The position numbers and the translations under genes are program-made. From contig JAZQEH010000080.1 of the NCBI GenBank assembly GCA_045538895.1, forward strand, positions 13,491 to 77,490: DNA of 64,000 bases. Direction: 5' to 3'. This DNA is from Eubacteriales bacterium. Lineage in GTDB: Bacteria; Bacillota; Clostridia; Oscillospirales; CAG-272. Positions 1,954-32,804 of the stretch are shown piece after piece (position 1 is the stretch's first letter; each line of letters begins with the position of its first letter). The notes beneath the pieces are model-generated. The model ran no database searches. It was given only the letters and a program-made list of their open reading frames with translations, and was not told the DNA's origin.

Positions 1954-1966
1954 AAGAGTTCCCTTT

Positions 1967-6127: not shown

Positions 6128-6292
6128 ATTACTTCCCTCTTCCTAAATTTTTGTTAATATAATGGTATCATAAATAAGATACACAAAACATAGCACAAAA
6201 TGATTAATAACTTGTCATAAAGTGATTTAATTTTGCTTTAACGCTTGACATGACACCTTGATTCTTGTTATTATTTGACTTGAGGTGAGCAT

Positions 6293-7087
6293 ATGTTTAA
6301 CCGGTATAAATTGCAAAACATGCACCTGTCCGTATACAATCCCAAAGACGTTGGAAGACATGACGGAATAAAAGAACATTCATACGGTCCTACGGTGCGA
6401 AGATACTTTCTAATTCACTATGTTTTCGAGGGAACAGTCACATTTCGAAAAGGTAATAATACCTATGAAGTAAAAAAAGGCGAATGCTTTATCATTCGCC
6501 CTGATGAGGTTACATATTATAAAAATCACGCACCGTGGCACTATGCCTGGATAGGCTTTTCTTCCGACAAAATTCCAAAATGTCTGATGGAATACGACGT
6601 TCTTAAAGTAGAGTTTCTTTGCGAAATCTTTGAAGAACTCGAAGCAAATATAGATAAGTACAATAGTAAGCTCGGCGACGGAGGAGCAAAAGAAGCATAT
6701 CTTTCCGGTAAAATAAGCGAAATTGCGGCACTGCTTGAAATACACTTTGACCGCCCCAAGGAATCGGCGACAAAAAAAGAAATAAGCAGAGTGAAAAACT
6801 ATATTGATGTGCGTCTTGCTTCAAATCTGTGCATTAACGAAATCGCAGATGAATTTCACATTGACCGTTCGCATTTATCGAGAAAGTTTAAGGAGGTTGT
6901 CGGCGTATCTCCGCAGAATTATATAGTGAACACAAGATTAAATGAGGCGGCAAAGCTTATGCGTGAGCAGGGGCTATCCCCCACAGAAGCCGCCGGTGCT
7001 GTTGGATACAACGATATTTATCTCTTTTCCAAAATGTTCAAACGCCGTTTTGGCGTTTCGCCGAGAAAATATAAAAATGGGCTGTAA
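6293..7087 (+). CDS. AraC family transcriptional regulator, divergent from GH97
   Basis: Cupin-type N-domain (YGPTVRRYFLIHYV, PWHYAWIGF) and C-terminal double HTH (AVGYNDIYLFSKMFKRRFGVSPRKY). Confidence 0.9.
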   Translation: MFNRYKLQNMHLSVYNPKDVGRHDGIKEHSYGPTVRRYFLIHYVFEGTVTFRKGNNTYEVKKGECFIIRPDEVTYYKNHAPWHYAWIGFSSDKIPKCLMEYDVLKVEFLCEIFEELEANIDKYNSKLGDGGAKEAYLSGKISEIAALLEIHFDRPKESATKKEISRVKNYIDVRLASNLCINEIADEFHIDRSHLSRKFKEVVGVSPQNYIVNTRLNEAAKLMREQGLSPTEAAGAVGYNDIYLFSKMFKRRFGVSPRKYKNGL

Positions 7088-7101
7088 AAACAGCCCATTT
7101 T
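7074..7101. terminator. Bidirectional terminator between convergent genes
   Basis: aaaatgggctgt-aaaa-acagcccatttt. Confidence 0.75.
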
Positions 7102-7103
7102 CT

Positions 7104-9842
7104 TTATTTTACGCTTTGCTTAAGCAATCTGAGTATATCAACAAGCTCTACGCTTGCTCTGCCGTAAAAGTATTCACTCTTATCAAAGCTGTTGTTTACA
7201 AGAGCTTTGAGAGCATAGAGGGTATCAAAGATATCAATATCGCCGTTTGCATCAAAGTCGCCGGTCAAAAGTACGGCGGTTGTAACGTTTGCACCCTTGT
7301 TTATTGTAACGCTACCGGTATTCTTTTCATAATCATGAGTGCGAACCAAAAGGGTGTGCTCACGAATCGGATAATTCTTATGCCATGCGTTTACATTGAA
7401 TTCAACCGTGCCTGTGAGATAGTTGTGACCGCAAGCACCGCTGAAACGACCGTTTGTATTATAGGAAATATCCTGCATTACGATACCGCCGCCAACATTA
7501 ATTACCATATCACCCGAATATGTGCCAACCTCTGCAGCAGAATTATAGAGATAGTTACCGCCGTTGATATATGCGTAATTACCGCCGTTGATATTGATGA
7601 CACAATCCTTGTCCGCCTGAATATTAGCCTCTATCGTGTGGTATGTAGAAGCAGTATTGGATGCGTAGGTAACGTATCCTGCAAGCAAGCATGCATAATG
7701 ATTTGCCTCGGTCTTAAAGCTCTCTGTAAGAGTTGCATTGTTGTAGCCAAGCTGAATAAAGATTGAATTCGATGCCGACGTGGTAAGAGTGATATTATCA
7801 AGCACGATATCACTTTCCGCAAGGAAATACTTTGAGCTTAAAGTAAGCTTTGCACCCGTTCCCTCGCCCTTGATGGTAAAGCTTTCTACGGGAGGAGTTG
7901 AAAGGTTGCGGTTTGCATCGTAAAGCTCTGCGGTATACGCACCGATAACATGGAGAGTAGCGTTGGGAGCCGCCTTTGCAAAAGCAATCATAAGGCTGTT
8001 TGTGGGGTTTTGCTCGGTAGCAAACATATTGGTAGTGCCGTCTGCCTTAAGATAAATATGCTCGCTTTCAAAGCCCTCAAGACGGCAAACACCATTATCC
8101 ATTGCATTGCAAAGCACGTCTACATAAATTGCATAGCCGTCGGCATGGGGATGAAGGTCATCACTTGAAAGGAAATTGCCCGCAAGTGCCTCCTCAAGAG
8201 TGAGTGCATAAAGGTCAACAAGCACATACTTATCACTCGTTTTAGCGAGTGCCTCGGTTGCCTTGATCTGCTGTGCACGTACGGTGATTGCACCGTATCC
8301 GAGAGTGGAGGGACGGTAGGTTGCGGTTGTTGCGTAAACCTTATCGGTTGTTGCAAGCGAGCCGAAATCCTTGAGAAGCTCAGTATACTCGTTGTAGAAG
8401 CGAACTATCTGGCTCTTACCGCCCTGAATTACGCCGGAATCGTTAGTGCCAAGACCGATAATAAAGATGTCGGCATCGGATTCAAGTGCAAGGTTGTATG
8501 CAAGCATATCGTTGTAATACTGGGTGTTGTAGTTTTCAACTCGTGTACCGCTACAACCGTAGTTACCGAGAATTACGTCTTTGCCCTCACCGTGAAGCTT
8601 TGTGAGAAGCTGTGCGGGGTATGAGAGAGTCTGGCGGCTACCCGAAGAATTACCCTCGGTAATAGAGTCGCCGATACATGCGATACGGAGAGGCTCATTA
8701 TAAGTTACGGTTTTGCCGTTAACCGTGTCAAAACGCTTAACGGTTACGTTCATGCTTTCGGGATATGTAAGAGTTGCCTTGTTTTCACTGCCCGCAAAAG
8801 CCTTAACCTGTGTTGCATCGAGCACCATGCCGCCCTGTAACGTAGCATTATCGGAAATAGCGAGATTGTAGTTTCCGCGGAGAAGCATGGTATATACGGA
8901 GGAATTCTGGAAAGCGCTGATTTCAAAGGTGTTGAAAGTACCGCCATTTATGTTGACATTTATATCGCCGTCACAGCGGTAATACTTTACATCGGACTTT
9001 GTAATCTGTGAGCCGCCGCTTGCTGCGGTATTCATTTCGCCAAGGTGTCCCTGTGCATAAACGGGTGCAAGGAAAGTACCGCCGTTTATAGTGAGAGTTG
9101 CATCGTCAGCAAGAATGGAGTAGCCGGAAATGCTGAAGAGGCACTCGGTCTTAATGGGTGAGTTTGCGGTATAGGAAGGTGCACTTCCGAACGTACCGCC
9201 GTCAATAGTAATCGTAATGGGTGCCGCAATAGAGCCAACGATTGCGTTTGCAGCACTTCTGCGGTTACCGCCAAAGAACTTGGCAAACGTACCGCCCTTT
9301 ACGGTAATGGAGTAAGGACGTGTTGCGATGCAGTATTGATTTGCAGGGTCGTTGACAGCTCTGTCGCCGACGCCGCTTGTGGCATTCTTGCCTGAATCAA
9401 CACCACCGTAAAATGAAAGCGCACCGTCAACGGTAACGTTCTCGGTAAAAAGAATACTGTTGTAGCTACCGAACATCGCCTGCGCACTTTCAAGCTTGAT
9501 AGGACAGTCTATTGTAATAAGATTGTCGTTTTTATTCTTTGAAAAGTATAAAGTACCTGCAATGTTAAGTACACCATTGCCTTCAGCGGTAATCGTAAGG
9601 TCACCGCTTTGCTCGGGAATTGTGATTGAGGAAGTCTTGATTTCATCAAGCAAAACAATCGTACCGCCCTCGCCGGCAAGCTTATCACAAGCAAGTGCGA
9701 TAGTAGCAACCGGACTATCCTGTGTTCCTGTTCCGCTTGCACCACTCTTTACGTACACGGTTTTTTCAGCAGCAAAAGAGGAGACGGTGAACAATGCAAA
9801 AAGCATTGTCGCAATAAGTAAAAATTTTAATACTTTTTTCAT
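7104..9842 (-). CDS. Secreted SGNH/GDSL esterase with beta-solenoid-like flanking modules and C-terminal dockerin-like domain
   Basis: Start placed at MKKVLK after GGAGG; IACIGDSITEG, NYGCSG, LGTND, DDLHP blocks; GDFDANGDIDIFDTLYALK...LVDILRLLK. Confidence 0.8.
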   Translation of the reverse strand: MKKVLKFLLIATMLFALFTVSSFAAEKTVYVKSGASGTGTQDSPVATIALACDKLAGEGGTIVLLDEIKTSSITIPEQSGDLTITAEGNGVLNIAGTLYFSKNKNDNLITIDCPIKLESAQAMFGSYNSILFTENVTVDGALSFYGGVDSGKNATSGVGDRAVNDPANQYCIATRPYSITVKGGTFAKFFGGNRRSAANAIVGSIAAPITITIDGGTFGSAPSYTANSPIKTECLFSISGYSILADDATLTINGGTFLAPVYAQGHLGEMNTAASGGSQITKSDVKYYRCDGDINVNINGGTFNTFEISAFQNSSVYTMLLRGNYNLAISDNATLQGGMVLDATQVKAFAGSENKATLTYPESMNVTVKRFDTVNGKTVTYNEPLRIACIGDSITEGNSSGSRQTLSYPAQLLTKLHGEGKDVILGNYGCSGTRVENYNTQYYNDMLAYNLALESDADIFIIGLGTNDSGVIQGGKSQIVRFYNEYTELLKDFGSLATTDKVYATTATYRPSTLGYGAITVRAQQIKATEALAKTSDKYVLVDLYALTLEEALAGNFLSSDDLHPHADGYAIYVDVLCNAMDNGVCRLEGFESEHIYLKADGTTNMFATEQNPTNSLMIAFAKAAPNATLHVIGAYTAELYDANRNLSTPPVESFTIKGEGTGAKLTLSSKYFLAESDIVLDNITLTTSASNSIFIQLGYNNATLTESFKTEANHYACLLAGYVTYASNTASTYHTIEANIQADKDCVININGGNYAYINGGNYLYNSAAEVGTYSGDMVINVGGGIVMQDISYNTNGRFSGACGHNYLTGTVEFNVNAWHKNYPIREHTLLVRTHDYEKNTGSVTINKGANVTTAVLLTGDFDANGDIDIFDTLYALKALVNNSFDKSEYFYGRASVELVDILRLLKQSVK

Positions 9843-9946
9843 AAGCCCTCCCAAAATTGTTAGGTTATAGAAATATTTTAACATATACATTAAAACGTGT
9901 AAATATCAAAAATGATAATAAATATTACAAATATGAAACAATACAC

Positions 9947-9976
9947 AAAAAAGGCTTGCCGAAGCAAGCCTTTTTT
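9947..9976 (-). terminator. Terminator ending the kdgK..DUF1116 operon
   Basis: aaaaaaggcttgc-cgaa-gcaagcctttttt. Confidence 0.8.
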
Positions 9977-9979
9977 ATC

Positions 9980-11416
9980 TTATTTACCGTACTTTTCTGC
10001 AAAAGCCTTGATTGCTTTTTCAAAGCAAAGCATAGGAACTCTCGCACTACCTGCACCGATAAGACCGCCCTCTCTATGGAACATACCGCCGTGAATTTCG
10101 GGGGAAATGCCGGTTTCGATAACCTTACGGATATCAATACCTACAGGGAGGAAGTCAAAATCGAGGTTAGGCACGGAGAATGCCGGATTCTTGGAAATAC
10201 AGATCTTTTCCATCTCACGGGTAAGAGCAATACCGTCCTTAAGCTTGAGACCACGAAGGCTCATAACGATAGGAGCTGCACATGCTGCAAGACCGCCCAT
10301 ACCTGCACACTCAACTACGCAGCTATCGCCCTTCCAGGGAAGCTGGTCAGCATCGGTGAACTTGGTGGAGGTGTAAAGACCCTTCATCATAGGAGCAGGA
10401 GCAGTAAACCACTCGTTTTCGCCCATACCTGCAACCTTGATACCGAATGTTACACCGTTACCGCAGATAGCAGTAACCATGGTGGAATAAGGAGTATTGA
10501 TTGCGCTGAGCATAGCCGCACGGCTCGCACCCTGACCGATACAGTGGAAGAAACGGGGAGTTTCAACAATGTAGTCAAGGGTGTCAAGAAGCTGTTTGCG
10601 GTCGAAGCCCTCGAGCTTGAAGAGTTCGGGAAGAATCTTCTTATCGAAGAGGAGGTCAGCCGCAGACTGACGGGTGTGGTTTTCGTCACCCATTACAAAG
10701 CTTTCAGCAAGAATGGGCTTAATGGGAAGACCGCCCATCTGCTTGATAGCAGCCTTCATTACGGGGAAGAAGTAATCCTTCATCTTGCGGAGATAGTCGG
10801 CAATAACCTCGGAGTAAAGACCCCAGCCGCAGAAACCGCCCTGGTTAGGTCCTTCTGCGGGGAAGTTTGCAGAAATCTTGCCGGTTCTTCTATCTTCGAT
10901 AATGAACATTGCAACGCTCTTGGTGATGATACCGGTACCTGCACCAACGGTGTTGGTGTCAAGTGCACTCAGGAGCTTAATCTTACCGGATTCGATAAGC
11001 TTGATAGCATCCTCATCAGTTTCAGCCCAGTGCTCAAAACGGCAAGCAGAAACAAGACCGCGGCGATGAAGCATAGTCATGTCTTCATAAGCAATCGGAG
11101 GACCGGAGTGAATAACGGTGTAATCATCAAGGCCTTCGATAACTTCGCCTGCAGGAATGATGTCTACGAGATAAGGCTCGGAGTCGATAATGCAGTGAAC
11201 TGCCTTATCGTTTGCCGCATCAATCTTTTCTCTGATTTCGGGTGAGGAAATCTTATTGAGTGCATCAAGCACTTCAGCACTCTGCTTTACAGGAGGCTTC
11301 CAGTCGATCTGAGTGGCTTTTACATCCTGTGCTACGAGAGCATCGTAGAAGAACTGTGTACCAATGTTAATGACCTTAAGGTCACTCTTATATGTCTTTT
11401 CTGCCACTAAACTCAA
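9980..11416 (-). CDS. DUF1116 family protein (YahG/YlbE-like), divergent
   Basis: VINIG..DWKPP N-terminus as in YahG, IHSGPPI, MGDENH, NGVTFGIKVAG, WFTAPA, GDS, GIDIRKVIETGI, IGAG, CFEKA; 4-nt overlap with fdrA. Confidence 0.85.
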   Translation of the reverse strand: MSLVAEKTYKSDLKVINIGTQFFYDALVAQDVKATQIDWKPPVKQSAEVLDALNKISSPEIREKIDAANDKAVHCIIDSEPYLVDIIPAGEVIEGLDDYTVIHSGPPIAYEDMTMLHRRGLVSACRFEHWAETDEDAIKLIESGKIKLLSALDTNTVGAGTGIITKSVAMFIIEDRRTGKISANFPAEGPNQGGFCGWGLYSEVIADYLRKMKDYFFPVMKAAIKQMGGLPIKPILAESFVMGDENHTRQSAADLLFDKKILPELFKLEGFDRKQLLDTLDYIVETPRFFHCIGQGASRAAMLSAINTPYSTMVTAICGNGVTFGIKVAGMGENEWFTAPAPMMKGLYTSTKFTDADQLPWKGDSCVVECAGMGGLAACAAPIVMSLRGLKLKDGIALTREMEKICISKNPAFSVPNLDFDFLPVGIDIRKVIETGISPEIHGGMFHREGGLIGAGSARVPMLCFEKAIKAFAEKYGK

Positions 11417-12945
11417 CCCCTTTCTTCAAGAGCTGCAAGGAATGCACTTGCAAGCTTTGTGCTTTCATAGTTACTTCTGGTTACGATAACGCCTGCATCA
11501 GCGAGCATCTTCTCTGCTGCGAGGGTATCCTGAGGGTCTTCGAGAGAACCGCAAACGTTGGAGATAAAGATGAGGTTGCTGCCTGCATCCTTAAGTGCCT
11601 TGCACTCGTTAGCGAAAGGAGTTACGGGGTCAGCCGCAACACCGGGGCCCATGATAAAGTCCATGGTTACAACTGCAACAGTGGGGTCTGCAATTTCTTT
11701 CTTAAGACGCTTAAGCTTAAGAATAGGATCGAATACGGGGTGAGGAGCTTCTGCGGTGAAGTCCTCTGCACCGAGGTCGAGTATGCAGTGACCAACGCTT
11801 ACGTCGTGGTCGGGAATCTGTGTAGAATACTTGGTATTGAGGTTGGAATTGAGTTTAACACCCTTGTTGTGCTTGGTGTAGTAGATCATGCCTTCCTCAG
11901 TAAAGGTACCGCCGCTGAAAAGACCGCGAACATACTTCTGCTCGTGGCGAAGTGCTGCAACCTTTTCTTTAACCATAGCATCAATTTCTGCATCGGTATA
12001 GCCCATTTCGGGAGCCTTGCCTGTGCAGAGTTCAACAGCCTTTCTTGCAGCCTCTTCAAGGCTGAAAGTACCGTGAACGTTGTGTCCCTCGTAGAGCTTT
12101 TCGTCAGCACCGAGGAAGATAGCAACAACAGGCTTTGTAAGACGGTCAGCAACACCGAGTACCTTTGCCATAACGTCGAGGTTTGCAAGCTTGGAAACAA
12201 GAACGATTACCTTTGTTTCGGGATCGTCTTCGAGCTTACGCATACCTGCGAGCATGGTGATACCGCCGATTTCGGGGAGAAGGTCATGACCGCCGGTACC
12301 GATGATAGAAGAAACACCGAGACCAAGACGCTCAACGATGCAGGAAACTTCCTGACAACCTGAGCCGGATGCACCTACGATGCCTACGGGGCCGGGACGA
12401 ACGATGGAGCCCGCACCAAGAGCAACGCCCTTGATAAGACCTACACCGCAGTCAGGACCCATAACGAGTCTGCCCTTTTCGGAGCCGTACTTCTTAAGGT
12501 CAGCCTCTTCTTCAAGAGATACGTTATCACTGAAGATAAATACATCGAGTCCCATGGAGAGTGCTCTCTTTGCTTCTGCATGAGCATACTCGCCGGGGAG
12601 AGAAATCTGTACAAGGTCATATTCGTCCTCACGGAGGTCGATCTCCGAAAGGCTCTTATAAGATACGCTGCCATCGCCCTCTTTGTGGTCGATAAGATCA
12701 CGCATTGTCTTCATGGCAGCTTCTGCCTGTTCCTCTGTATCCGCAGTTACAGCCATGATAAGGTCATTGGGAGTAACTTCGGGGATATCGTAACCAAGGT
12801 CATCAATAAGCACTTCAAGGTTTGCAGGAGTACCCATGCCGCTTTCAGCATTGGTAACGCCGTCAAGCTTCATAACCTTGGCACTTACAGCCATAAGAGA
12901 AACAGAGTCAACATAACGGTTTGCAATAACAACAACCTTTTTCAT
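11413..12945 (-). CDS. fdrA: FdrA/YahF family protein (acyl-CoA synthetase-like)
   Basis: YVDSVSLM, MGTPANL, ISLPGEYA, FSDNV, VMGPDCG, GASGSG, IGTGG, GLFSGGT, LDLGAEDFT, PHPVFDP. Confidence 0.85.
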   Translation of the reverse strand: MKKVVVIANRYVDSVSLMAVSAKVMKLDGVTNAESGMGTPANLEVLIDDLGYDIPEVTPNDLIMAVTADTEEQAEAAMKTMRDLIDHKEGDGSVSYKSLSEIDLREDEYDLVQISLPGEYAHAEAKRALSMGLDVFIFSDNVSLEEEADLKKYGSEKGRLVMGPDCGVGLIKGVALGAGSIVRPGPVGIVGASGSGCQEVSCIVERLGLGVSSIIGTGGHDLLPEIGGITMLAGMRKLEDDPETKVIVLVSKLANLDVMAKVLGVADRLTKPVVAIFLGADEKLYEGHNVHGTFSLEEAARKAVELCTGKAPEMGYTDAEIDAMVKEKVAALRHEQKYVRGLFSGGTFTEEGMIYYTKHNKGVKLNSNLNTKYSTQIPDHDVSVGHCILDLGAEDFTAEAPHPVFDPILKLKRLKKEIADPTVAVVTMDFIMGPGVAADPVTPFANECKALKDAGSNLIFISNVCGSLEDPQDTLAAEKMLADAGVIVTRSNYESTKLASAFLAALEERG

Positions 12946-12968
12946 TTATGTTTATTCCCTTCTTATTT

Positions 12969-14606
12969 TTAAATTGATTCCTTGAGCACCACTGTGCCTT
13001 CGGGAGTATTGCGGATAACTACACGGTACTTCTCTTTTCCCTCTTCCTCATGATCGGTGCGGACATGGCAACCGCAGGTTTCCTTGCGTGCGTCTGCACT
13101 GAGTGCAAGCAGGAACGTAGTCTGAAGATCGTTTACAAGACGGATAGTTTCAAAAGAAAGCTCTTCGGAAATACCCTCCATAGAGGAGTTGTCAAGCTCT
13201 TCGAGAAGGTCACCGATTTCGTTAATAGCCTCCTCAAGCTCATCGCCTGTGCGGAGAACGTTAAGCTTTTCGGAAAGAACCTTCTGCATCTTCAAACGTA
13301 TGGTGTCAAGCTGTTCTTTAGTAACAACTGTATCACCAGAAAGAGAGAGAGTATCGTCTACGAAATCCTCTGCATCGTCATCGGTAACGGTAACCTTTTC
13401 AGCCTTTGCAAGATAATCTGCAACGCTTTCACCGGCAATTCTGCCGAATACCATTGTTTCAAGACCTGCGTTACCGCCAAGACGGTTTGCACCGTGAAGA
13501 CCACCGATGATCTCACCGCAAGCATAAAGCCCCTCAATACCGCTGAAGCAGTTTTCATCAACAGCAATACCGCCAAGCGAGGTGTGAGGTGCGGGAGCAA
13601 TCTCAAATGGAGTGGTTGCAATGTCGATACCGACATCGCTGTAACGCTTTACATAGGAATCGTACTGTTCGTTAAGACGTTCACGGCCTACGCCACGGCA
13701 GTCAAAGAATACACCGCCGTTTTCGGTACCGCGACCTTCCTTAATCTCCTTAAATATGTATCTCGACTGAACGTCCTTGTTTACGCACTCGCCGGCTTCG
13801 CCGTACTGGAGCATGAAACGCTCGCCAAGTGTGTTGCGAAGAACTGCGCCCTCGTAGTACATCGTTGTGATAACGCTCTTGCCGCGGATTGCCTTAGGAG
13901 CAACTGCAGCAGAGGGCTCAAACTGTACAAACTCAAGGTCGCAAAGGTCAGCACCAACTGAGAACGACATTGCAATGCCGTCGCCGCCGATATCCGACAT
14001 ATTAGTGGAGAAAGGATAGATATTGCAGAAGCCGCCGCACGCAAGTACAACCGCATTTGCAATAATCAATGTATATTTCTTTTCGTTAATCTGATAGGTG
14101 AGTGCACCGCAAACACGTCCGTCAATGCGAAGAAGACGAAGTGCGCGGGTGTCCTTAAGCGAAGAAATATTTTCATTTTTCGCAAACTCATCACGGATAG
14201 CGTTCATAATAGCAACGCCGGTGTGGTTACCAACGCTCGCTACACGGGGATGAGAAGCACCGAGAGGACGGAGAAGCGAATACTCGCCGTCCTTGCGATT
14301 GAACTCGATGCCGAGCTCCTCAAGGATGGGGCGAAGCTCTACAGAACCGTCGCAAAGTGCCTTTGCAAGTTCCTTCTTGCTTTGCTCACGTCCGCCTACG
14401 AATGTATCTTCGAAAAAGCTTTCCATGGAGTCATCCTTGTGGAGCATCATGTTAAAGCCATGTACATACGGAGAAGCACCGAGACCGTTACCTATCATAA
14501 GAATTTTTGCATCAGGAAGTTTTTTTGTAAGACTGCGTGCCGCCATAAGTCCGGAAAGACCGGTACCGATAATGAGGGCATCAGTATTAAGAACAGAATA
14601 GTTCAC
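12969..14606 (-). CDS. FAD-dependent oxidoreductase of the NadB/SdhA/FrdA flavoprotein family, substrate unknown
   Basis: GTGLSG, LACGG, GDG, EFVQFEPS, GERFM, HTSLGG, ACGE, GLHGANRLGGN, RKETCGCHVRTD; no Fe-S partner gene adjacent. Confidence 0.8.
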   Translation of the reverse strand: MNYSVLNTDALIIGTGLSGLMAARSLTKKLPDAKILMIGNGLGASPYVHGFNMMLHKDDSMESFFEDTFVGGREQSKKELAKALCDGSVELRPILEELGIEFNRKDGEYSLLRPLGASHPRVASVGNHTGVAIMNAIRDEFAKNENISSLKDTRALRLLRIDGRVCGALTYQINEKKYTLIIANAVVLACGGFCNIYPFSTNMSDIGGDGIAMSFSVGADLCDLEFVQFEPSAAVAPKAIRGKSVITTMYYEGAVLRNTLGERFMLQYGEAGECVNKDVQSRYIFKEIKEGRGTENGGVFFDCRGVGRERLNEQYDSYVKRYSDVGIDIATTPFEIAPAPHTSLGGIAVDENCFSGIEGLYACGEIIGGLHGANRLGGNAGLETMVFGRIAGESVADYLAKAEKVTVTDDDAEDFVDDTLSLSGDTVVTKEQLDTIRLKMQKVLSEKLNVLRTGDELEEAINEIGDLLEELDNSSMEGISEELSFETIRLVNDLQTTFLLALSADARKETCGCHVRTDHEEEGKEKYRVVIRNTPEGTVVLKESI

Positions 14607-14640
14607 TTTTGTGAATTTCCTTTCTTTAATTAAGCCGATA

Positions 14641-14664
14641 TTGCGGCTCCTTTCGGAGCCGCAA
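14641..14664. other. Intergenic GC-rich hairpin without a clear U tract (possible mRNA-stabilising or processing stem)
   Basis: ttgcggctcc-tttc-ggagccgcaa between the dehydratase and flavoprotein genes. Confidence 0.5.
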
Positions 14665-14681
14665 CACGGTAGTTTGAAATT

Positions 14682-16370
14682 TTAGCAATCCCAAACGCAA
14701 CCCTGTGCCATAGAGCCAACGTTCTTAACAAAGAGACGGAGGAATCTGTGGTAGTTGTTTGCGGGGAATTCCCAATGGAACTTGGAAAGACGGTCATTAA
14801 GCTCTTCATCAGAGATGCAGAGAGTGATGTTACGGTTAGGAATGTCGATGGAGATTTCATCGCCGTCTTCGATTACGCCGAGAGGTCCGCCGAGAGCTGC
14901 TTCAGGAGATACGTAACCAACAGAAAGACCGGAAGTACCGCCGGAGAAACGGCCGTCGGTGATAATTGCGCAAGAATTGAAGAGTTCGGGATGGCCCTTG
15001 AGCTCTTCCTGGAAGGTGAATGCGGTTGTACCGAAACGAGCCTTCATACCGAGGAAACGAACTACGCAAGCATCGCCGGGCTGAATCTTGCCGTTACGGA
15101 GTGCTTCGAGGGACTCATCGAGAGAGTTGAATACCTTTGCCTTGCCCTTGTAGGTCATGAGGTTTGCAGGAACTGCTGCGATCTTGATCATTGCGCCTTC
15201 GGGAGCGAGGTTACCGTAAAGAACGCCGATACCGGGCTCGGTCATTACGGGGTTGTCAAGAGTACGGATAACGTCGGGGAGGTAAACCTTTGCGTCCTTG
15301 ATGTTTTCTGCCATGGTCTTACCTGTTACGGTCATAACAGAGGTGTCAAGGATGGTTTCCATGTTCTTCATAAGAGCGGTCATACCACCTGCAAGGTCGA
15401 AGTCCTTAACAGAGTACTTATCGCCGGAAGGAGCGAGGTGAGAGAGAAGCGGAACCTGATTGGATGCTTCGTCAAAGTATCTCCACCACTGAATGTGGCC
15501 AAGACCTGCCTCGTTTGCGATTGCGGGGATGTGGAGAATGAGGTTGGTAGAACCTGCAACTGCCATATCAATCTTAATTGCGTTCTTAACTGCTGCTTCA
15601 GTAATAATCTGACGTGCAGTGATACCCTCGTCAACGAGCTTCATGATCTGCTTACCAGCCTTGTAAGCCATGAGGTAAAGCTGGCTGCTTACTGCGCAAG
15701 TAGAAGAGTTATTGGGAAGAGTCATACCAAGTGCTTCTGCAATCATGCACATGGAGTTAGCAGTGGTCATAGATGTACAACCGCCGCAAATACCCCAGGA
15801 CTGCTCGATAAGGCCGTTGTAAACGTCCATGTCGATCATGCCCTTAGCTGCTGCGCCTACCTTATCCTGAGCGTGGATATGTACAACTTCCTTACCCTTG
15901 TGGATACCGAGAGGCATGTAACCACCGGTAACAATGATTGAAGGAATGTCAAGACGTGCACAAGCCATGAGGTAACCGGGAACGATGGAGTCACATGTGC
16001 AGAGGAGAACCATACCGTCGAAGAAGTTGCCTTCAACAGTCATTTCTACCTGGTCGGCAATGGAGTTACGGGAAGGAACCTCGATGTACTTAGGATCCTT
16101 AAGTACCATACCGTCACAGATACCGGTGGTCATAACTTCGAGAGGAAGACCGCCTTCTTCACGGATACCGTGCTTAACTCTTTCAGCAACCTTGTCAAGG
16201 TGTACGTGACCGGGGTTGTATTCGTTCCAGGAGTTAACTACACCGATAAGAGGTCTGTCGATCTCTTCCTTGGAGTAACCCATACCGTACATAAGGCCGC
16301 GGCGGCATTCTTCTGCTTCGCCGAATTCCCAGCAGCTTCTCATGTCTTCATACTTTTTCTTAAGTAACAT
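14682..16370 (-). CDS. IlvD/Edd family Fe-S dehydratase, atypical
   Basis: RPLIGVVNSW, PGHVHL, CDG, SRNSIAD, TANSM, EALGMTLP, GSTNLILH, GNLAPEGA, TDGRFSG, VSPEAA. Confidence 0.9.
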   Translation of the reverse strand: MLLKKKYEDMRSCWEFGEAEECRRGLMYGMGYSKEEIDRPLIGVVNSWNEYNPGHVHLDKVAERVKHGIREEGGLPLEVMTTGICDGMVLKDPKYIEVPSRNSIADQVEMTVEGNFFDGMVLLCTCDSIVPGYLMACARLDIPSIIVTGGYMPLGIHKGKEVVHIHAQDKVGAAAKGMIDMDVYNGLIEQSWGICGGCTSMTTANSMCMIAEALGMTLPNNSSTCAVSSQLYLMAYKAGKQIMKLVDEGITARQIITEAAVKNAIKIDMAVAGSTNLILHIPAIANEAGLGHIQWWRYFDEASNQVPLLSHLAPSGDKYSVKDFDLAGGMTALMKNMETILDTSVMTVTGKTMAENIKDAKVYLPDVIRTLDNPVMTEPGIGVLYGNLAPEGAMIKIAAVPANLMTYKGKAKVFNSLDESLEALRNGKIQPGDACVVRFLGMKARFGTTAFTFQEELKGHPELFNSCAIITDGRFSGGTSGLSVGYVSPEAALGGPLGVIEDGDEISIDIPNRNITLCISDEELNDRLSKFHWEFPANNYHRFLRLFVKNVGSMAQGCVWDC

Positions 16371-16397
16371 TGCTTTATTCTCCTTATAATTTAATAA

Positions 16398-17264
16398 TTA
16401 GTCAAGTGTGTATTTGGTTGCAGGAGTATAATAATTCTCCATGTCAGCCTTGAACTGATATGCGTTTACGGGATTACCGTCGTCAAGCATCTTGTCGATA
16501 GCACCGTCTACAGACTGACCACCGTCGATAACGATGGTTTCACCAACGATAAAGCGATTGGTTTCGTTGTTGGTGAGGAAAAGAATCATAGGAACGATAT
16601 CGTCGGTGTTACCGAGATAGCCTGCAGGAATCTTACGGAGGAAGCCCTTTTCAAGGTCGCTCTGGTCATAACGGTCGGTAGCCTTTGTTGCAATGAAACC
16701 GGGAGCGATGCAGTTTACGTGGATACCGTAGTGAATTGCTTCGATACCGAGGTTCTTGGTAAGCATATTAAGGCCTGCCTTTGCAGCAGCGTAAGGAAGA
16801 GTCTTTCTTCTTACCCACGGAACGAGAGAGTGAACCGAGCTGATGTTTACAATAGAGCCCTTGATGTTATTCTCGATCATGTTCTTCATTGCGAAGTGAG
16901 AGAAGTATGCGGGAGCATTAAGATTAAGACCGATCTGGCTTTCCCAATACTCAAGGGGCATCTGCTCAAAGCCGCCCTCGGGCATCTTGAGTGCGCCGCC
17001 TGCATTGTTGATGAGTACATCAATAGTGCCAAACTTTTCAAAGAAGTCATTCATCATCTGTTCAACAACTTCTCTCTTAGAGATGTCGCCGCCGAAAATT
17101 TCAGCACGTACACCGTAGGAACGGCACTTTTCTGCAACCTTTTCTGCATCGTCAGGCTTTCTGTTGTAAGTGATACCAACGTTGTCACCGTTCATAGCAA
17201 AAGCGATCGCAGTTGCTGCGCCGATACCGGAAGAAGATCCGGTAACAAGTACATTTCTTGCCAT
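16398..17264 (-). CDS. SDR family NAD(P)-dependent oxidoreductase
   Basis: TGSSSGIG, NNAG, NISS, YAAAK, PGFIAT, DGG; start moved to the ATG after GGAGG. Confidence 0.9.
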   Translation of the reverse strand: MARNVLVTGSSSGIGAATAIAFAMNGDNVGITYNRKPDDAEKVAEKCRSYGVRAEIFGGDISKREVVEQMMNDFFEKFGTIDVLINNAGGALKMPEGGFEQMPLEYWESQIGLNLNAPAYFSHFAMKNMIENNIKGSIVNISSVHSLVPWVRRKTLPYAAAKAGLNMLTKNLGIEAIHYGIHVNCIAPGFIATKATDRYDQSDLEKGFLRKIPAGYLGNTDDIVPMILFLTNNETNRFIVGETIVIDGGQSVDGAIDKMLDDGNPVNAYQFKADMENYYTPATKYTLD

Positions 17265-17300
17265 TTTTGTTTCCTCCAAAGATGATTATATATTTTGTTT

Positions 17301-18170
17301 TTATTTTTCAAGTTCACGGATATGCTCACGCACCGTATATAGCGGCAAGAACATATGCGTCGGCATTACGCCGTCGATGTGTTTTACAAGCTTTTCCGCA
17401 ATTTTCACAATGTCGCTTTCACCGTTATCAAGTTCACTCTTGACAAAATCACCGTATTCGTATGTAAGTCCAAGAGCTTCCTCCAAAAACGATTTCACGT
17501 TTTCCTTACCGCAAACGATATCCCCAACCGGCAAAAACGGATGTCCGAGCACTGCGTTTTCCGCGTTTAAGGAAATGAGTTTTTCCATAGAAGAACGGTA
17601 CTCGGGAAGATACATGTATGCACCGCAGCCCTGCACAAGTGTGCCGTTAAGCTGCACGGAGTCACCGCATACAAGCGTTTTTGTCATGCGGTCATAGATG
17701 CACACAGTATCGCTGTCATGACCGGGAGTTGCGATAAGCTCTACCCTTCCGTCAATCACGTCACCGTCAGAGAGAACACGGTCAACCGCCGTTCCCTCAA
17801 GGCCGTTTGACGGAGGAGGACTGTTTAAAGGGAAAGCCTGTCTGATTTCAATATTGTATTTAAGAGGATCAATAATCTTCGGAACAGAAAGCTCATATGC
17901 CGCAATCTCTTTTATGCCAAGTTCACGGAGGCGTCTGAATCCTCCGATATGGTCGCCGTGAGTATGCGTGCATACAACACATTCAACGTCCGAAAGCGAA
18001 AGTGAGAGAGCCGAGAGTGCAGGAATGATGTATTCGTCCACCTCTTCACGGTTGCCTGCCGCATCAATAAGATAATTCTTATCACCCGTCAGCAGTACAA
18101 CACCCGTAGTAGTGCCGCCATGCGGCACACGAAGCAGATATACGTTTTCACACACTCTCTCGAAACTCAT
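17301..18170 (-). CDS. Metallo-beta-lactamase fold hydrolase (candidate lactonase)
   Basis: THTHGDHIGG, TPGHD, GDSV, LGH metal motifs. Confidence 0.85.
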   Translation of the reverse strand: MSFERVCENVYLLRVPHGGTTTGVVLLTGDKNYLIDAAGNREEVDEYIIPALSALSLSLSDVECVVCTHTHGDHIGGFRRLRELGIKEIAAYELSVPKIIDPLKYNIEIRQAFPLNSPPPSNGLEGTAVDRVLSDGDVIDGRVELIATPGHDSDTVCIYDRMTKTLVCGDSVQLNGTLVQGCGAYMYLPEYRSSMEKLISLNAENAVLGHPFLPVGDIVCGKENVKSFLEEALGLTYEYGDFVKSELDNGESDIVKIAEKLVKHIDGVMPTHMFLPLYTVREHIRELEK

Positions 18171-18188
18171 ATTTACCTCTTTAGCAGA

Positions 18189-18848
18189 TTACTTACGCTT
18201 GCAAGCCTTAACCTTTGCTACAACTGCTGCAGCATGGTTCTTGATTTCTTCGTAGTCGCAGGTGCCCTTGGTGGGGTGAGTGATACCTGTGCCGAGTGCT
18301 ACTGCGTATGCACCGTCATCAAACCACTTTTCGATATTGTTGATATCTACACCGCCAACAGGAATACATCTTGCCTGAGGAAGGGGGCCCATAACTGCCT
18401 TGATAAAGCCAATGCCAACTGCACTTGCAGGGAAAATCTTAACGATATCGCAGCCGTAGTCCATGGCGGTTACGATTTCGGTAAAGGTCTGTACGCCGGG
18501 CATGTAAGCGATGCTGTAACGGTTACAGAGCTTTGCAACTTCGGGACGGAAGTTGGGAGCTATGATGAAGGATGCACCTGCAAGGATACAAGCTCTTGCG
18601 GTCTCAGGGTCGAGAACTGTGCCTGCACCAACGTATGCATCAAGTCCCTTTTCCTTGATTTCCTTTGCGATGGTCTCAATGATATTGAGTGCACCGGGGG
18701 TGGACATGGAAACTTCAAGAATGGTAACGCCGCCGTCCATGATAGCACGGGTACGAACCATTGCTTCTTCTTCACTCTTGTCGCGAACGATACCTACAAG
18801 GCCGTTTGCGTGCATGTTAGCTATAACTTTATGCTTAAGAATATCCAT
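18189..18848 (-). CDS. eda: KDPG/KHG aldolase
   Basis: GIVR, LEVS, VGAGTVLD, PG..TFTE, VKIFPA, PVGGV. Confidence 0.9.
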   Translation of the reverse strand: MDILKHKVIANMHANGLVGIVRDKSEEEAMVRTRAIMDGGVTILEVSMSTPGALNIIETIAKEIKEKGLDAYVGAGTVLDPETARACILAGASFIIAPNFRPEVAKLCNRYSIAYMPGVQTFTEIVTAMDYGCDIVKIFPASAVGIGFIKAVMGPLPQARCIPVGGVDINNIEKWFDDGAYAVALGTGITHPTKGTCDYEEIKNHAAAVVAKVKACKRK

Positions 18849-18892
18849 CTTTTTTACCTCTTTAGATTTAGAAAAAAGTTATTTACAAAGTT

Positions 18893-18974
18893 CAAGCTTG
18901 ACGGTTTCGGCTTGCCGAAATTTGTGCCGGCTGGCACAAAAGCCAAGCTTGCAATGCGAAGGTGCAACCTTCGC
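18893..18974. repeat. Multi-hairpin palindromic intergenic element
   Basis: caagcttg...caagcttg enclosing tttcggc-tt-gccgaaa and tttgtgcc-ggct-ggcacaaa, followed by gcgaaggt-gca-accttcgc. Confidence 0.6.
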
Positions 18975-18976
18975 TA

Positions 18977-20011
18977 TTATCTCTGAATTCTGCCGTTGCC
19001 GCTGCCTGCGATAAGGTTTTCAACGTCTTCCTTGCCGAATCTTACGAAGTCACCGTAGGTGGTGTGCTTGAGAGCAGACCCGCCGATAGCAAATTCGATA
19101 ACCTTCTGATAATCGCCGCCAAAGTTGCGGAGACCGTAGATAAGAGAACCGCCGAAAGAGTCGCCGCCGCCGATACGGTCAACGATGTTGGTGATAGAGT
19201 ACTTACGGCTCTGGTAGAAGCCGCCGTCACGGATTGCAAGAACACCGGACCAGTTGTTGTGGTCAGCGGATACGCTCTCACGGAGAGATACTGCAAGGCC
19301 CTTAACATTGGGATATGTATCCATAACGAGCTTTGCAAGATCCTTGTACATGTCAACGTTGAGCTTGCCGGAGTCAACACCGGTTTCCATCTCGATACCG
19401 AGGCACTTCTGGCAGTCTTCCTCGTTTGCAATCATGTAGTCGATGTATTTAGCGATTTCGGGCATTACTTCGATAGGCTCCTTGCCCCACTTCCAGAGCT
19501 TCTTGCGGTAGTTAAGGTCGCAAGAAACGGTTACGCCCTTTTCCTTACACTTCTTGAGAGCCTCGATAGTAGCCTCGCAAAGAGATTCGGAAAGTGCGGG
19601 AGTGATACCGGTTACGTGGAACCAGTCAGCACCGTCAAGAATTTCATCCCAGTTGAAGTCGCCGGGCTTAACTGCTGCGATAGCAGTGTTGTCACGGTCG
19701 TAAATTACCTTGGAGGGACGCATGTTGGAGCCGGTCTCGGTGAAGTAAAGACCAAGACGCTTGCCGGTCATCTGGATGGAGCTGGTATCAATGCCGAAAC
19801 GGCGGAGCTCGTTTACAGCCGCCTTACCAAGATCGTTCTTGGGGAGTGCAGTAACAAACTTCGCTTCGTCACCGTATGCACTAACTGCAACAGCAACGTT
19901 AGCCTCTGCACCGCCAAAGGTGCAAACCATGTTGGGTGTCTGGAGAATCATCTCTCTTGCGGGAGGAGTGAGTCTGAGCATAAGCTCGCCGAAAGTAACA
20001 ACCTTTTTCAT
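18977..20011 (-). CDS. kdgK: 2-keto-3-deoxygluconate kinase (PfkB family)
   Basis: FGELMLRL, GGAEANVA, RLGLYF, VIYDR, HVTGITPALS, DLNYRKKLW, ANEED, VDRIGGGDSF. Confidence 0.9.
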   Translation of the reverse strand: MKKVVTFGELMLRLTPPAREMILQTPNMVCTFGGAEANVAVAVSAYGDEAKFVTALPKNDLGKAAVNELRRFGIDTSSIQMTGKRLGLYFTETGSNMRPSKVIYDRDNTAIAAVKPGDFNWDEILDGADWFHVTGITPALSESLCEATIEALKKCKEKGVTVSCDLNYRKKLWKWGKEPIEVMPEIAKYIDYMIANEEDCQKCLGIEMETGVDSGKLNVDMYKDLAKLVMDTYPNVKGLAVSLRESVSADHNNWSGVLAIRDGGFYQSRKYSITNIVDRIGGGDSFGGSLIYGLRNFGGDYQKVIEFAIGGSALKHTTYGDFVRFGKEDVENLIAGSGNGRIQR

Positions 20012-20073
20012 TTTTGTTTACCTCGATAAAATAATTTTTTCGCACGTCCTGCGTGCCATATTTGTACATAATA

Positions 20074-20102
20074 ATTATAGTAAAAAATCCTTGTCAAGTC
20101 AA
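20074..20102 (-). promoter_or_regulatory. sigmaA promoter of the kdgK operon
   Basis: TTGACT-17 bp-TATAAT. Confidence 0.7.
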
Positions 20103-20196
20103 GAAGCGAAAGAATTCTTTCCTTACAAATAACTGAACTTTTGTCCCTCAGGTTTTTGCACACTTTGATGAATTTTTAACAAAGTTTCTTTTTTAC

Positions 20197-21963: not shown

Positions 21964-24900
21964 TTATTTAACTCTCATATTTTTAAGTGCAATACGGGTG
22001 AATATTACGCAAGCTTCACTGCGTACAATTTCTTCATCCGGTCGATAAGTACCCTTGCCCGCATCTCCGCTTACAATTCCTGCCTTGTAGAGCTTTGAAA
22101 CTGCATTGTAGCAAGCCATATCGCTTGTCACATCGGGATTTGAGCCTTCACGGGTAGCCTCATATTCACTGCCCGGAAGAATACTTGCAAACACTATCGC
22201 CATATCACCTCTTGTGATATTCTTATTCACATCTGCAAACTGCCCCTCTGTAATGATACCGTTCTGCACGCAATACTCTACGTAAGGAACATACCATGCT
22301 TCACCCAAAGCCGCATTGCGAACGGTCTTATCTGCGTATAAGCTGTGGATATTTGCCGCCGCAGTCAGTGCCTGTGCCACTGTAAAGTTGCCATTGGGAG
22401 AAAACTTTGCGGCAGACGTACCGTTTGCAAGTCCTATCTGATATGCCGTTTCAACATATGACTTAAACCAATGTGTATCACTGACATCGGTGAAGGAACC
22501 TGTATACTGTCTTTTCGCTGCAAACGGATTCTTTGTATAGTCAACCTTTGTAAATCCGCTGATCTTGTTGATTACGGGATTTGGGTTTACTACCTGTGTG
22601 TAGACTCTGTCAGGTGATGACGGGTGTCCCGTGCCCTCGCTGATTACAACACCGTCTTTATCTGCACGGTAAGGCTCAACAAATGCGTATCTGCCACCGT
22701 TTGTGTCTGTGCCGAGATAAGCGTTGTAACAAATCCAGCCTTGTCCCGAAGAATCATCTACGTAAGAAGCCGAGCCGATACCGCAAATTTCATCATTCAT
22801 AGAAAGAATAGGTTCGGAAGATTTTACCCAATTCTTTGCATCAAGCGGGTCACCGCCAAGGAACTTGAGTTGACCGAGCTTGTATTCGGGAGTATTGTAG
22901 CCGCAAGCCGAATATACGATATAGATGCTGCCATCATCGCCGTAAACAGCCGTGCCGCACTCAACGATTGTAAGTGTGGTATGTCTGCCGATTTCCCAAT
23001 CGTATTCAGGGCGGACAAGGATTGTCGACTTACCCTTGATTGTCCATGGGTTTGTCATTTCGATGATATTGATGTTCTGATTCATCTTTCCCTCTTCGCC
23101 CTCAACGGCAACAAAGAGATTATAAACCTTGCCGCCTATACGGATGTCTGTCTGTCCGCCGGACCATCTGTCGTTAAAGCCCTCAAGCTCTACCGACACC
23201 TTTTCTGGTACGTTGACCTCGCCGGTAATGGGATGCCCCCATCGTCCGAGCAGATTGTCGCCGTCAAGACACTTGAGAACGAACATTCTGTGTCCCGTAT
23301 CATTCTCTGTTTCGCCGCCAGAACCGGCAAAATAGAGATACCAGCCTCCATTGCCCTCTCCGACCTCTTCATCAGTATAATGATGAATTTCGGGAGACCA
23401 GCAGCTTTTAGAATATGCTTTACCCTCCTCGGGGAGAAAAACAGTTTTACCGGTTGTATAAATGAGGTCGCCGATATTTGCCGTTTTGGTAAGTCCGATT
23501 CCGGGCTTACCTGTCGTGGATGTGTAATAGTAGAAGCCGTCATGGTAGAAGAGCCACGGGTCTGCACCGTCTTCTCTCACATAGTTTGTAAATGTATATG
23601 TGCCTGTTTCAATTTCGCAAAGGTCAACGGTGCTATTAATAAACGAGGGAACTCCGTCTACATTACCTGAGCCTGTAAATTCGACAAGATGTGCAAAATC
23701 GCCACCCGTAATATGAACATTGTAAACACCTTTGTAGGTGCCGTTTGCACTTGCGGCATAAAGGAACTTGTTATAGAATGTACCGCCGGCAATACCGAGA
23801 TTTACATTACTGTCAAATACCTGCTCCTCTTTTGTAATATTTGCACTCAACACAGAGGCATACATTGTGCCGCCGGTGAACGTTGCGTTTATATCGCCCG
23901 TGTGAGCGGAAGTGCTGCCCAAAACCATGGCATCATAAAACTCGCCGCCCTCAATACGCACATTTACGGTGCAATTGGTTGCATTACCCGAGGTTCCTCC
24001 GCGAAGTCTTCCCCACTTACCGCTTTTAACAGTAACATCTGTGGTTTTATCGCTTATATCGCCAATACCGCCGCCGATTACCGTCATGTACGTCTGACCG
24101 GCAACCCTGTCACATACTATTCCGTCACCCAATACAAGCTTATGACATTCGCCTGCGATTGCCTTGTATTTTGCCTCGGATGACAAATGAATATTATTAA
24201 ACTCGGTTTCACCGCCGCAATGATAATTGTTTCTGAATACAATTTCAGCACCGTTTTCCTTTATATAGTCAACACCGTCATAAAGTGACGTTACAATTAC
24301 CTTTCCGTCATGCTTATACTTATAACCGAGGACTGCCGCCGTGATAGTAACCTTTCCGCAAACTACTATAGTGCCGCCCTCGTTGCCAAGAGCATTGTAT
24401 GCCTCGTCAAAGGAGCTGCCCGCACTTGCAAAGGTGCCTCCGTTACCCGTGCCACCGTCACGGATAAAATAAACTCTGTCTGCAGAGGTATCAAAAAGCC
24501 CCTTTACGTTGCCAAGTGCTTCCGCAGTGATGCCGTCACCAAGAGTTGCTTTGCCGTGTACGTTTGTGCCGATACACTCAAAAGTACCGACTTTTCCGCC
24601 AAGATACTTTAAAACAAGCTTCTTCGAAACGCTGTTAAAGATGACCTTTTCGGCATTTCCGCCATTTACGGTAATATCAAAGATTTCGCCGCCGTTTTCA
24701 CTTGACTTTACGGTTTTTACACTACCGCCGTTAACTTCAATTACTGTGTTATTGCCGCCAACGATTGTTTCAACATCTGCACCGTCAACAATAACTCTTT
24801 TTGCATTTATAACACTGCCCACCGAACCGCTGCGGAGAATTGCGGAGCCTGTAACGTTCAGCTTTTTCTCGGTCTTTACGTCCTTTGCGATTTCCAGAAC

Positions 24901-26241: not shown

Positions 26242-26280
26242 AACCGTACTCCTTTTAAGCATTCCTGTTTTGTGAGAATA

Positions 26281-27618: not shown

Positions 27619-27628
27619 TTTTGTTCTC

Positions 27629-28447: not shown

Positions 28448-28558
28448 ACACTCACCTCTCAACAAGCATTATAACAAATAAACATAGCAAAATGCAATAG
28501 TAATATTCATGTTTTTGTTCTATACTGTTCTTACAAAACATTTTTTGGAGGGAAAGCA

Positions 28559-32482: not shown

Positions 32483-32483
32483 C

Positions 32484-32794: not shown

Positions 32795-32804
32795 GTTAAT
32801 TAAA

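Follow-up and report, generated by a model that had tools for sequence, protein, structure and literature searches.

A co-conserved operon of gut Clostridia predicted to couple oxidative sugar catabolism to an acyl-phosphate ATP step

A 64,000-nucleotide stretch of an Eubacteriales bacterium genome of the CAG-272 lineage (GenBank assembly GCA_045538895.1, contig JAZQEH010000080.1, positions 13,491 to 77,490; hereafter, the window) carries an operon of eight open reading frames (ORFs) in the order kdgK-eda-MBL-SDR-IlvD-like-flavoprotein-FdrA-AllG/DUF1116, with all operon features located on the minus strand. The operon is a real, co-conserved catabolic unit of gut anaerobes from many lineages. 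The pathway, whose parts would be this operon plus an ackA*-allH gene pair on another contig, is real, conserved, and undescribed; no description of the gene combination was found in the literature searched, most subscription journals and supplements lying outside it. The original prediction of an undescribed catabolic pathway with a modified Entner-Doudoroff logic is supported in this respect. It is probably a sugar pathway with an acyl-phosphate ATP step. Within this frame, a more specific reading is favored tentatively, in which the pathway is a phosphorolytic, ATP-yielding variant of the diketo-hydrolase route, leading from an aldose through lactone, aldonate, 2-keto-3-deoxy acid, and 2,4-diketo acid to pyruvate and a hydroxyacyl phosphate.

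AllG was found in most other genomes of the genus (15/18) but in none of 42 genomes from other genera of the family and order. Among 12 genus regions fetched, eight contained all eight genes in one order and four showed the same order up to the contig or region edge. An additional gene of ~1.2 kb, encoding a ROK-family regulator where examined, lies between MBL and SDR in seven of the eight complete regions. A 400-genome sample of the phylum yielded generic AllG alone, with 33 to 40% identity over the full length, and plasmids likewise carried the generic type only (<60% identity). A profile of the IlvD-like dehydratase (IlvD*) matched 6 of 398 other Clostridia genomes scored (2 were not scored) and none of 101 relatives of G458; as G458 was itself unmatched, the latter search is uninformative. 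A metagenome scan confirmed 169 stretches, the best 80 of which were kept for analysis and, together with further loci, were sorted by AllG identity (90%) into 29 groups and an outgroup linked to carbamate kinase (L038). The gene set recurs in shuffled order among these 29 groups and across families, which bears out the co-clustering across gut Clostridia that had been put forward as a check. In the 17 groups with a locus of at least 12 kb (12 shorter groups were excluded), which are related by descent and do not represent independent events, and in which several misses fall at contig ends, FdrA was found in 17, the flavoprotein (FAD*) and IlvD* in 15 each, MBL in 14, SDR and AllH in 13 each, and the acetate kinase paralogue AckA* in 11. 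The other counts in the same groups were Eda (10), KdgK (9), mutarotase (4), and ROK regulators (4). Pairwise identities of AllG and its partners correlated weakly (Spearman 0.14 to 0.50) and do not demonstrate coevolution.

Aldose dehydrogenase, lactonase, IlvD/Edd dehydratase, 2-keto-3-deoxygluconate (KDG) kinase, and KDPG aldolase constitute the enzyme set of the semi-phosphorylative Entner-Doudoroff and De Ley-Doudoroff routes, and the operon resembles these routes in having all five. However, its dehydratase is without two Mg ligands, and FAD*, FdrA, AllG, AllH, and AckA* show a tighter conservation than do KdgK and Eda. KdgK (18977..20011, 344 amino acids [aa]) is a PfkB-family 2-keto-3-deoxy-sugar-acid kinase (PF00294) whose best NCBIfam matches are kinases of KDG and 2-keto-3-deoxygalactonate (KDGal), below the cut-off, and Eda (18189..18848, 219 aa) is a KDPG/KHG aldolase (PF01081; TIGR01182 above the cut-off). 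Both are accessory rather than core. Eda is 27 to 58% identical between genera versus 56 to 82% for IlvD*, which suggests that Eda was recruited repeatedly. Several cluster aldolases score best against the KDPGal aldolase. One cluster is followed by genes for another SDR, a dehydratase of the enolase family, and an Eda (L151 899-3508, in G911), which together resemble a galactonate route. Beside eda/kdgK in three groups, there is a small cupin-fold protein with no Pfam family (L051 1325-1726 and relatives).

The FdrA/AllF-like subunit (11413..12945, 510 aa) scored 367 bits against NF004760, below the curated cut-off of 433, and matched PDB 3DMY with an E value of 3e-56. The AllG/DUF1116-like subunit (9980..11416, 478 aa; PF06545; PDB 3CLQ) represents a distinct subfamily that is 33 to 40% identical to generic members and whose motifs are noncanonical, differing from those of the carbamate-kinase-linked AllG of L038. 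Its N-terminal extension corresponds elsewhere to a small separate ORF or to the end of FdrA (split match in L036/L037). The window genome, which is 98% complete, contains one AllH (DUF2877) match and two acetate kinase matches. The allH gene and one of the kinases lie side by side on contig C1 (G000:C1), unlinked to the operon, and both are found inside the cluster in most other lineages. The C1 kinase is of the cluster-linked paralogue type (AckA*), and a normal AckA is also encoded in the genome. The AllF, AllG, and AllH subunit families are thus all encoded. Of 18 genus genomes, 15 encode AckA* at 81 to 97% identity and G002 carries a fragment of it; no match turned up in G004 or G010 (63% and 75% complete), two of the three genus genomes that also lack AllG. 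AckA* tracks AllG within the genus. The original prediction had the substrate processed by the flavoprotein and the FdrA/DUF1116 pair and overlooked AllH and AckA*. With these partners, the pair is likely an ATP-yielding acyl-phosphate module.

AllFGH of Escherichia coli phosphorolyzes oxalurate, requires all three subunits for full activity, and is encoded in an operon with a carbamate kinase (PMC11326118). The present system is similar in that the three subunit families occur and are paired with a kinase able to turn the phosphorylated product into ATP. It differs in that the kinase is an acetate kinase paralogue instead of a carbamate kinase, AllG is of another subfamily, the neighbors are sugar enzymes instead of allantoin or purine genes, and in this genus allH and the kinase gene lie apart from the other genes. 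In effect, the system would join a module of the AllFGH-AllK kind to an oxidative route for sugars. The window genome gave no match to the carbamate kinase of L038, and no carbamate kinase was present among the neighbor families that recur in at least two groups, where the acetate kinase paralogue occurs instead. The product of the complex is therefore probably not carbamoyl phosphate but some other acyl phosphate. It had been proposed that the substrate is a sugar derivative carrying an amide, ureide, or amine conjugate. A ureide variant, in which the complex would serve as a carbamoyltransferase, with a sugar ureide or an amide conjugate as its substrate and carbamoyl phosphate as its product, would make good use of the complete set of AllFGH subunit families. 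However, it is improbable given the missing carbamate kinase, the presence of AckA*, and the changes in conserved motifs of an AllG so distant from generic members. The ureide or carbamoyl part of the proposal is thereby weakened, and its amide part survives in the main rival described below.

AckA* scored above the cut-off of TIGR00016 and retained the equivalents of Val93, His123, His180, and Arg241, in which it resembles the AckA/TdcD/PduW family. It differs from that family in having Ala or Val for Leu122 (20/20), Glu for the metal-site Asp (20/20), Lys for Arg91 (19/20), and additional invariant polar residues (Tyr129 and Gln233), and in sitting beside a normal AckA. The altered positions are among the acyl-pocket and catalytic positions listed in PMC3475010. 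Because a normal AckA is also present, acetyl phosphate would need no special kinase. An acyl-cysteine intermediate on FdrA was rejected, since the Cys at 165-166 is Ala in 8 of 20 sequences. The predicted FdrA-AckA* complex had a score of 0.00, which was counted neither for nor against an interaction. In three relatives (L153, L154, and L155), ackA* lies beside a LacI regulator gene and in G016 beside that of a sugar-binding lipoprotein as well; the nearest matches to the two in the window genome (68% and 54%) adjoin each other (G000:C19 9256-11987), and this lipoprotein, which belongs to a set of six paralogues, shows high codon adaptation. The 12-mers common to the kdgK and ackA* promoters were not convincing.

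IlvD* (14682..16370, 562 aa; PF00920 and PF24877, below every NCBIfam cut-off) is an IlvD/Edd-family Fe-S dehydratase with a remodeled Mg site. The Fe-S cysteines and catalytic serine are kept (C85, C126, C198, and S476 in 18/18; C195 in 15/18, with Gln in 3/18). Two of the four Mg ligands are changed, with Ser128 in place of the carbamylated Lys and an R445-F-G-T loop where dihydroxy-acid dehydratases (DHADs) carry the distal Glu (18/18); this mapping was made through DHAD alignments and not through RlArDHT itself. In RlArDHT, the Lys and distal Glu coordinate the Mg by which the substrate is chelated through its C1 and C2 oxygens (PMC11316719). The fold of IlvD* was confirmed (TM ~0.8 to DHADs), and the AlphaFold model, with a mean pLDDT of 70 and active-site loops of <50, supports the fold alone. 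In G013 (L029 5018-6703), a single in-frame stop splits IlvD* into 240 and 319 aa, and the remaining operon is intact.

FAD* (12969..14606, 545 aa; PF00890 and PF02910, below every cut-off) shares with NadB/FrdA the fold, the FAD-binding motif, the C-terminal helical domain, and the His/Arg carboxylate site (His341/Arg375). It differs in being only ~30% identical to a true NadB, in carrying Glu230 and Lys277 where true NadB (G726) has His and Arg, and in having no Fe-S or membrane subunits nearby; no frdBCD-type partners of either kind were found among the recurring neighbor families. Residues E230, T247, T248, K277, H341, and R375 are invariant in 21 of 21 sequences; in NadB/FrdA, the dicarboxylate site comprises both His/Arg pairs. 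Neither nadA nor nadC gave a tblastn match in the window genome, and a NadB role was rejected in view of these substitutions and missing partners. Of the 150 representatives listed for a wider unnamed clade (P0246-P0395), most among the top 100 carry the Glu/Lys pair, which reaches dozens of clusters with <35% identity, outlining a large uncharacterized NadB/FrdA-fold clade. The original prediction had seen altered active-site motifs in three enzymes; this is right for the dehydratase and the flavoprotein, and such changes extend to AllG and the unlinked AckA*. Judged from its sequences, the system would not classify as an oxamate carbamoyltransferase, a canonical IlvD/Edd, a NadB/FrdA enzyme, an acetate-specific AckA, or Route III, the diketo-hydrolase route of pentose, L-fucose, and L-rhamnose degradation.

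In the favored phosphorolytic reading, SDR would oxidize the aldose at C1, possibly assisted by a mutarotase, as its family and neighbors suggest, and MBL would open the lactone. IlvD* would then dehydrate the aldonate, or possibly the lactone, and FAD* would give the enol of a 2,4-diketo acid, with Lys277 taking the C3 proton and the flavin the C4 hydride. Oxalurate (H2N-CO-NH-CO-COO-), on which AllFGH is known to act, has an isostere in an acylpyruvate (R-CO-CH2-CO-COO-), and on this ground the FdrA/AllG/AllH complex is predicted to use phosphate to split the diketo acid, giving pyruvate plus a hydroxyacyl phosphate. AckA* would finally make ATP, releasing glycolate, lactate, or glycerate according to the sugar, and KdgK and Eda would form an accessory branch for D-hexose-derived KDG or KDGal. 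The operon shares with Route III a dehydrogenase-lactonase-dehydratase front end, and its core differs from that route (PMC6336799) in lacking both an SDR-type 2-keto-3-deoxypentonate (KDP) 4-dehydrogenase, its sole SDR being glucose dehydrogenase-like, and, among annotated neighbors, an FAH-family hydrolase. The NadB-fold flavoprotein and AllG-type proteins are predicted as substitutes, with a gain of ATP. The last two steps of Route III are those of the KDP 4-dehydrogenase and an acylpyruvate-type hydrolase, giving pyruvate and glycolate or lactate (PMC6336799).

Several observations speak for the favored reading. Every core gene is given a role, and the special kinase is explained. The cluster of G923 (97% complete; locus L145) consists of exactly MBL-SDR-IlvD*-FAD*-AllG, with no FdrA match, and L079 is possibly alike; the five genes of the G923 cluster map one to one onto the five Route III steps (PMC6336799). 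The cluster without FdrA suggests that AllG is the bond-cleaving subunit and is able to act hydrolytically. It adjoins a polysaccharide deacetylase gene. In addition, the window genome contains GH43 genes, yet nothing above the cut-off for a class II aldolase, a fucose/arabinose isomerase, or xylA, and it has a glycerate kinase gene beside that of a LarA-family racemase.

Other observations weigh against the favored reading. We know of no AllFGH relative that cleaves a C-C bond and of no NadB/FrdA-fold KDP 4-dehydrogenase, and no electron acceptor or Fe-S partner for FAD* was identified among the recurring neighbor families. AckA* keeps Val93 in 20 of 20 sequences and mostly Phe179 and Pro232, so that its acyl pocket is only modestly changed. 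KdgK and Eda head the operon and are strongly codon adapted, and no other source of KDG was found in the window genome, which a linear route ending in KDG would explain better; a D-hexose would, moreover, give equal ATP by both branches. The invariant Arg-Lys pair in a loop of SDR, together with a TRAP transporter in one group, hints at an anionic sugar. Finally, an ordinary aldonate would not require the loss of the two Mg ligands of IlvD*, which in RlArDHT serve to chelate C1 and C2 oxygens (PMC11316719).

This last point is accounted for by the main rival, itself rather unlikely, in which the substrate is a C2-blocked hexose, namely, an N-acyl (or O-acyl) hexosamine such as N-acetylgalactosamine, N-acetylmannosamine, N-acetylmuramic acid, or an N-glycolyl sugar. 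After its oxidation to the aldonate, IlvD* would eliminate the C3 substituent to give a 2-acylamido-enoate, which is isosteric with oxalurate and would be cut at the same C-N bond. The products would be ammonia, an acyl phosphate from which AckA* would gain ATP, and KDG or KDGal, on which KdgK and Eda would act. The C-N chemistry of AllFGH (PMC11326118) would be retained, and KdgK and Eda would become the end of a linear route, with the divergence of Eda pointing to its repeated recruitment. This rival is in keeping with the ROK regulators of four of the 17 groups, with genes for deacetylases or esterases near three clusters, and with the distribution of nag genes: neither nagA nor nagB was found above the cut-off in the window genome, nagA occurs in 4 of 18 genus genomes versus 32 of 42 others, and nagB occurs in 3 of 18 versus 28 of 42. 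Two of the four nagA-bearing genus genomes are those that lack both AllG and AckA*. However, every one of the eight carriers tested from outside the genus has kept nagA, which leaves a single lineage as the basis of the anticorrelation, and a replacement of NagAB, seen in the genus, was rejected as a general rule. The rival also leaves the core FAD* without a role and the special kinase unexplained if the acyl group is acetyl, and GH20 was found in just 1 of 18 genus genomes, besides a weak match in the window genome.

The front-end enzymes bear on the nature of the sugar. SDR (16398..17279) is a predicted aldose 1-dehydrogenase whose top PDB matches and closest solved relatives are Bacillus glucose 1-dehydrogenases. 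It keeps the Ser-Tyr-Lys triad and the nucleotide motif, with S148, H150, R158, K159, Y163, and K167 invariant in 13 sequences, and the Arg158-Lys159 pair adjoins the catalytic Tyr. Its start is more likely the ATG at 17264, behind a purine-rich stretch resembling a ribosome-binding site, than the 17279 start of the ORF. The invariant Arg158/Lys159 and Arg445 of IlvD* would suit an acidic or branched sugar (uronate, 4-O-methyl-glucuronate, sulfoquinovose, apiose, or aceric acid) processed by the same architecture to an anionic or one-carbon acyl phosphate. A TRAP transporter and a mutarotase in one cluster point the same way, as do the scores of IlvD*, which reach 529 bits with models of branched-chain DHADs but no more than 415 with those of sugar-acid dehydratases, and the lack of a uronate isomerase route among the genes found in the window genome. 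Such a substrate is nevertheless unlikely, since most clusters carry neutral-sugar-type ABC transporters, no substrate-specific glycosidase was found to recur among the annotated cluster neighbors, and KdgK requires a free C6 hydroxyl and the D configuration.

MBL (17301..18170, 289 aa; PF00753) is an MBL-fold hydrolase and a predicted lactonase whose metal motif does not vary among 15 sequences. An amidohydrolase-2-like protein (score of 0.98) takes its place in three genomes of another family, and both folds include sugar lactonases. Lactones are activated esters, and the complex might conceivably phosphorolyze an aldonolactone to an aldonoyl phosphate, from which AckA* would release aldonate and ATP before an ordinary dehydration to KDG and a linear route to KdgK and Eda. 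We regard this as very improbable: the core lactonase-type gene would short-circuit the phosphorolysis step, a hexonoyl group looks too large for the pocket of AckA*, and FAD* itself and the changes in IlvD* stay unexplained.

The architecture of the locus argues for a single unit. As originally described, eight co-oriented ORFs lie between one promoter and one terminator, and the intergenic gaps from kdgK to AllG are 128, 18, 21, 27, 75, 23, and -4 nt, so that five of seven are <40 nt, with one overlap of 4 nt. The family calls for all eight ORFs were backed by Pfam and NCBIfam; only Eda scored above a curated NCBIfam cut-off, and the other seven proteins were below theirs. The sigmaA-type promoter (20074..20102; TTGACT-17-TATAAT, score 11/12) has both boxes kept in 9 of 9 aligned genus upstream regions (the window and eight relatives), although promoter-like hits across the scan were no commoner than in shuffled sequences (21 versus 17.0 ± 4.1). 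The intrinsic terminator (9945..9978) has a 15-pair stem and a folding z of -6.5, and no internal terminator was found on the coding strand of the operon. A chance assembly of unrelated genes or two separate units might be suspected from the variable presence and origin of kdgK and eda and from the 128-nt structured spacer behind kdgK (18849..18976, z = -4.96). This is hardly tenable and is already largely refuted by co-conservation, in view of the same core in many orders across families, the one conserved promoter, and the uninterrupted coding strand. The kdgK-eda spacer is merely ~30 to 45 nt in several relatives. A second strong stem-loop occupies the spacer between IlvD* and the flavoprotein (14607..14681, z = -6.18). 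Both lack a U-tract on the coding strand, and the genes that they follow, kdgK and IlvD*, rank among the most codon adapted. Such stem-loops may stabilize processed mRNA segments and set protein ratios, an idea that comes from clostridial operons.

With ten housekeeping genes as the reference, codon adaptation placed IlvD* at the 99.7, kdgK at the 99.6, SDR at the 99.2, and FdrA at the 98.9 percentile, FAD* and AckA* at the 92 percentile, and MBL and AllH at 54 to 55. With a self-derived reference that includes operon genes, eda was at the 99, AllG at the 97, and the ispH-rpsA gene at the 85 percentile. An rpsA-like codon preference had been noted by eye for most of the genes, which was right in direction but understated. 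The operon is probably native and highly expressed. Metatranscriptome contigs from four gut RNA runs of two studies cover all eight genes, mostly at <95% identity, and some span gene junctions; such contigs examine transcription weakly, showing neither strand, level, nor a single transcript, and within this limit nothing pointed to a kdgK-eda unit transcribed apart from the other six genes. No assigned pathway was found for close homologues of these co-conserved genes.

Besides the absences mentioned above, the window genome had nothing above the cut-off for uxuA, uxaC, nanE, kduI, murQ, or uxaA, and classical routes for pentoses, uronates, and amino sugars were likewise not found; the family-level searches behind this covered neither AraA (PF02610) nor the enolase-family dehydratases, for which one query gave no tblastn match. 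A second Eda-family gene lies near a contig edge. The 101 ORFs of 20 selected regions include Leloir genes, several GH43 genes, GH2 and GH32 genes, a glycerate kinase gene, and a LarA-family gene. The codon bias suggests that the pathway is a main energy route of a gut genus in which the standard pentose, uronate, and amino-sugar pathways were not found.

To our knowledge, fermentation has very few known steps of substrate-level phosphorylation, and the pathway, if true, would add a new one. The sole characterized member of the AllFGH family was reportedly identified in 2024, and the family would acquire a second chemistry. Functions would also be provided for the remodeled IlvD, NadB-fold, and AckA subfamilies, now labeled dihydroxy-acid dehydratase, aspartate oxidase, and acetate kinase in databases, and all pathway enzymes are predicted to be soluble. 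In its broadest form, and more tentatively still than the favored route itself, the proposal is that AllFGH-fold complexes are general acyl-phosphate-forming lyases, which in gut Clostridia use phosphate to break a C-C bond in a 2,4-diketo acid that derives from a sugar. Together with a kinase dedicated to the hydroxyacyl phosphate, they would constitute a new substrate-level phosphorylation route and the main catabolic line of a whole uncultured genus, served by a Mg-free IlvD and a new class of NadB-fold dehydrogenases.

Upstream of the promoter, between deoD and kdgK, lies an imperfect TTGTTA-N6-TAACAA-type inverted repeat (20165..20182), a half-palindrome that is a candidate operator for a ROK or LacI regulator. 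Its left half is kept in the genus alignment, and a perfect TTGTTA-N6-TAACAA palindrome occurs in G016. The flanks of the window (640-9890 and 21964-34820) contain GH4, GH97, SGNH, GH43-SLH, and GH31-PA14 genes and an ispH-rpsA fusion. The flank genes queried were not conserved beside the operon in relatives, except deoD, a WYL gene, and one AraC match. Elsewhere in the genome (L125, G000:C10 2301-9390), a 591-aa gene of unknown kind, the LarA-family racemase gene, the glycerate kinase gene, galM, and galT are codirectional, and this glycerate kinase cluster is a possible glycerate sink. In the outgroup L038 (1369-12356), the genes ahead of the carbamate-kinase-linked allH-allF-allG cluster resemble by eye what we take to be a cyanuric-acid/barbiturate ring hydrolase, a deaminase, and two transporters, and a further AllFGH substrate is possible there.

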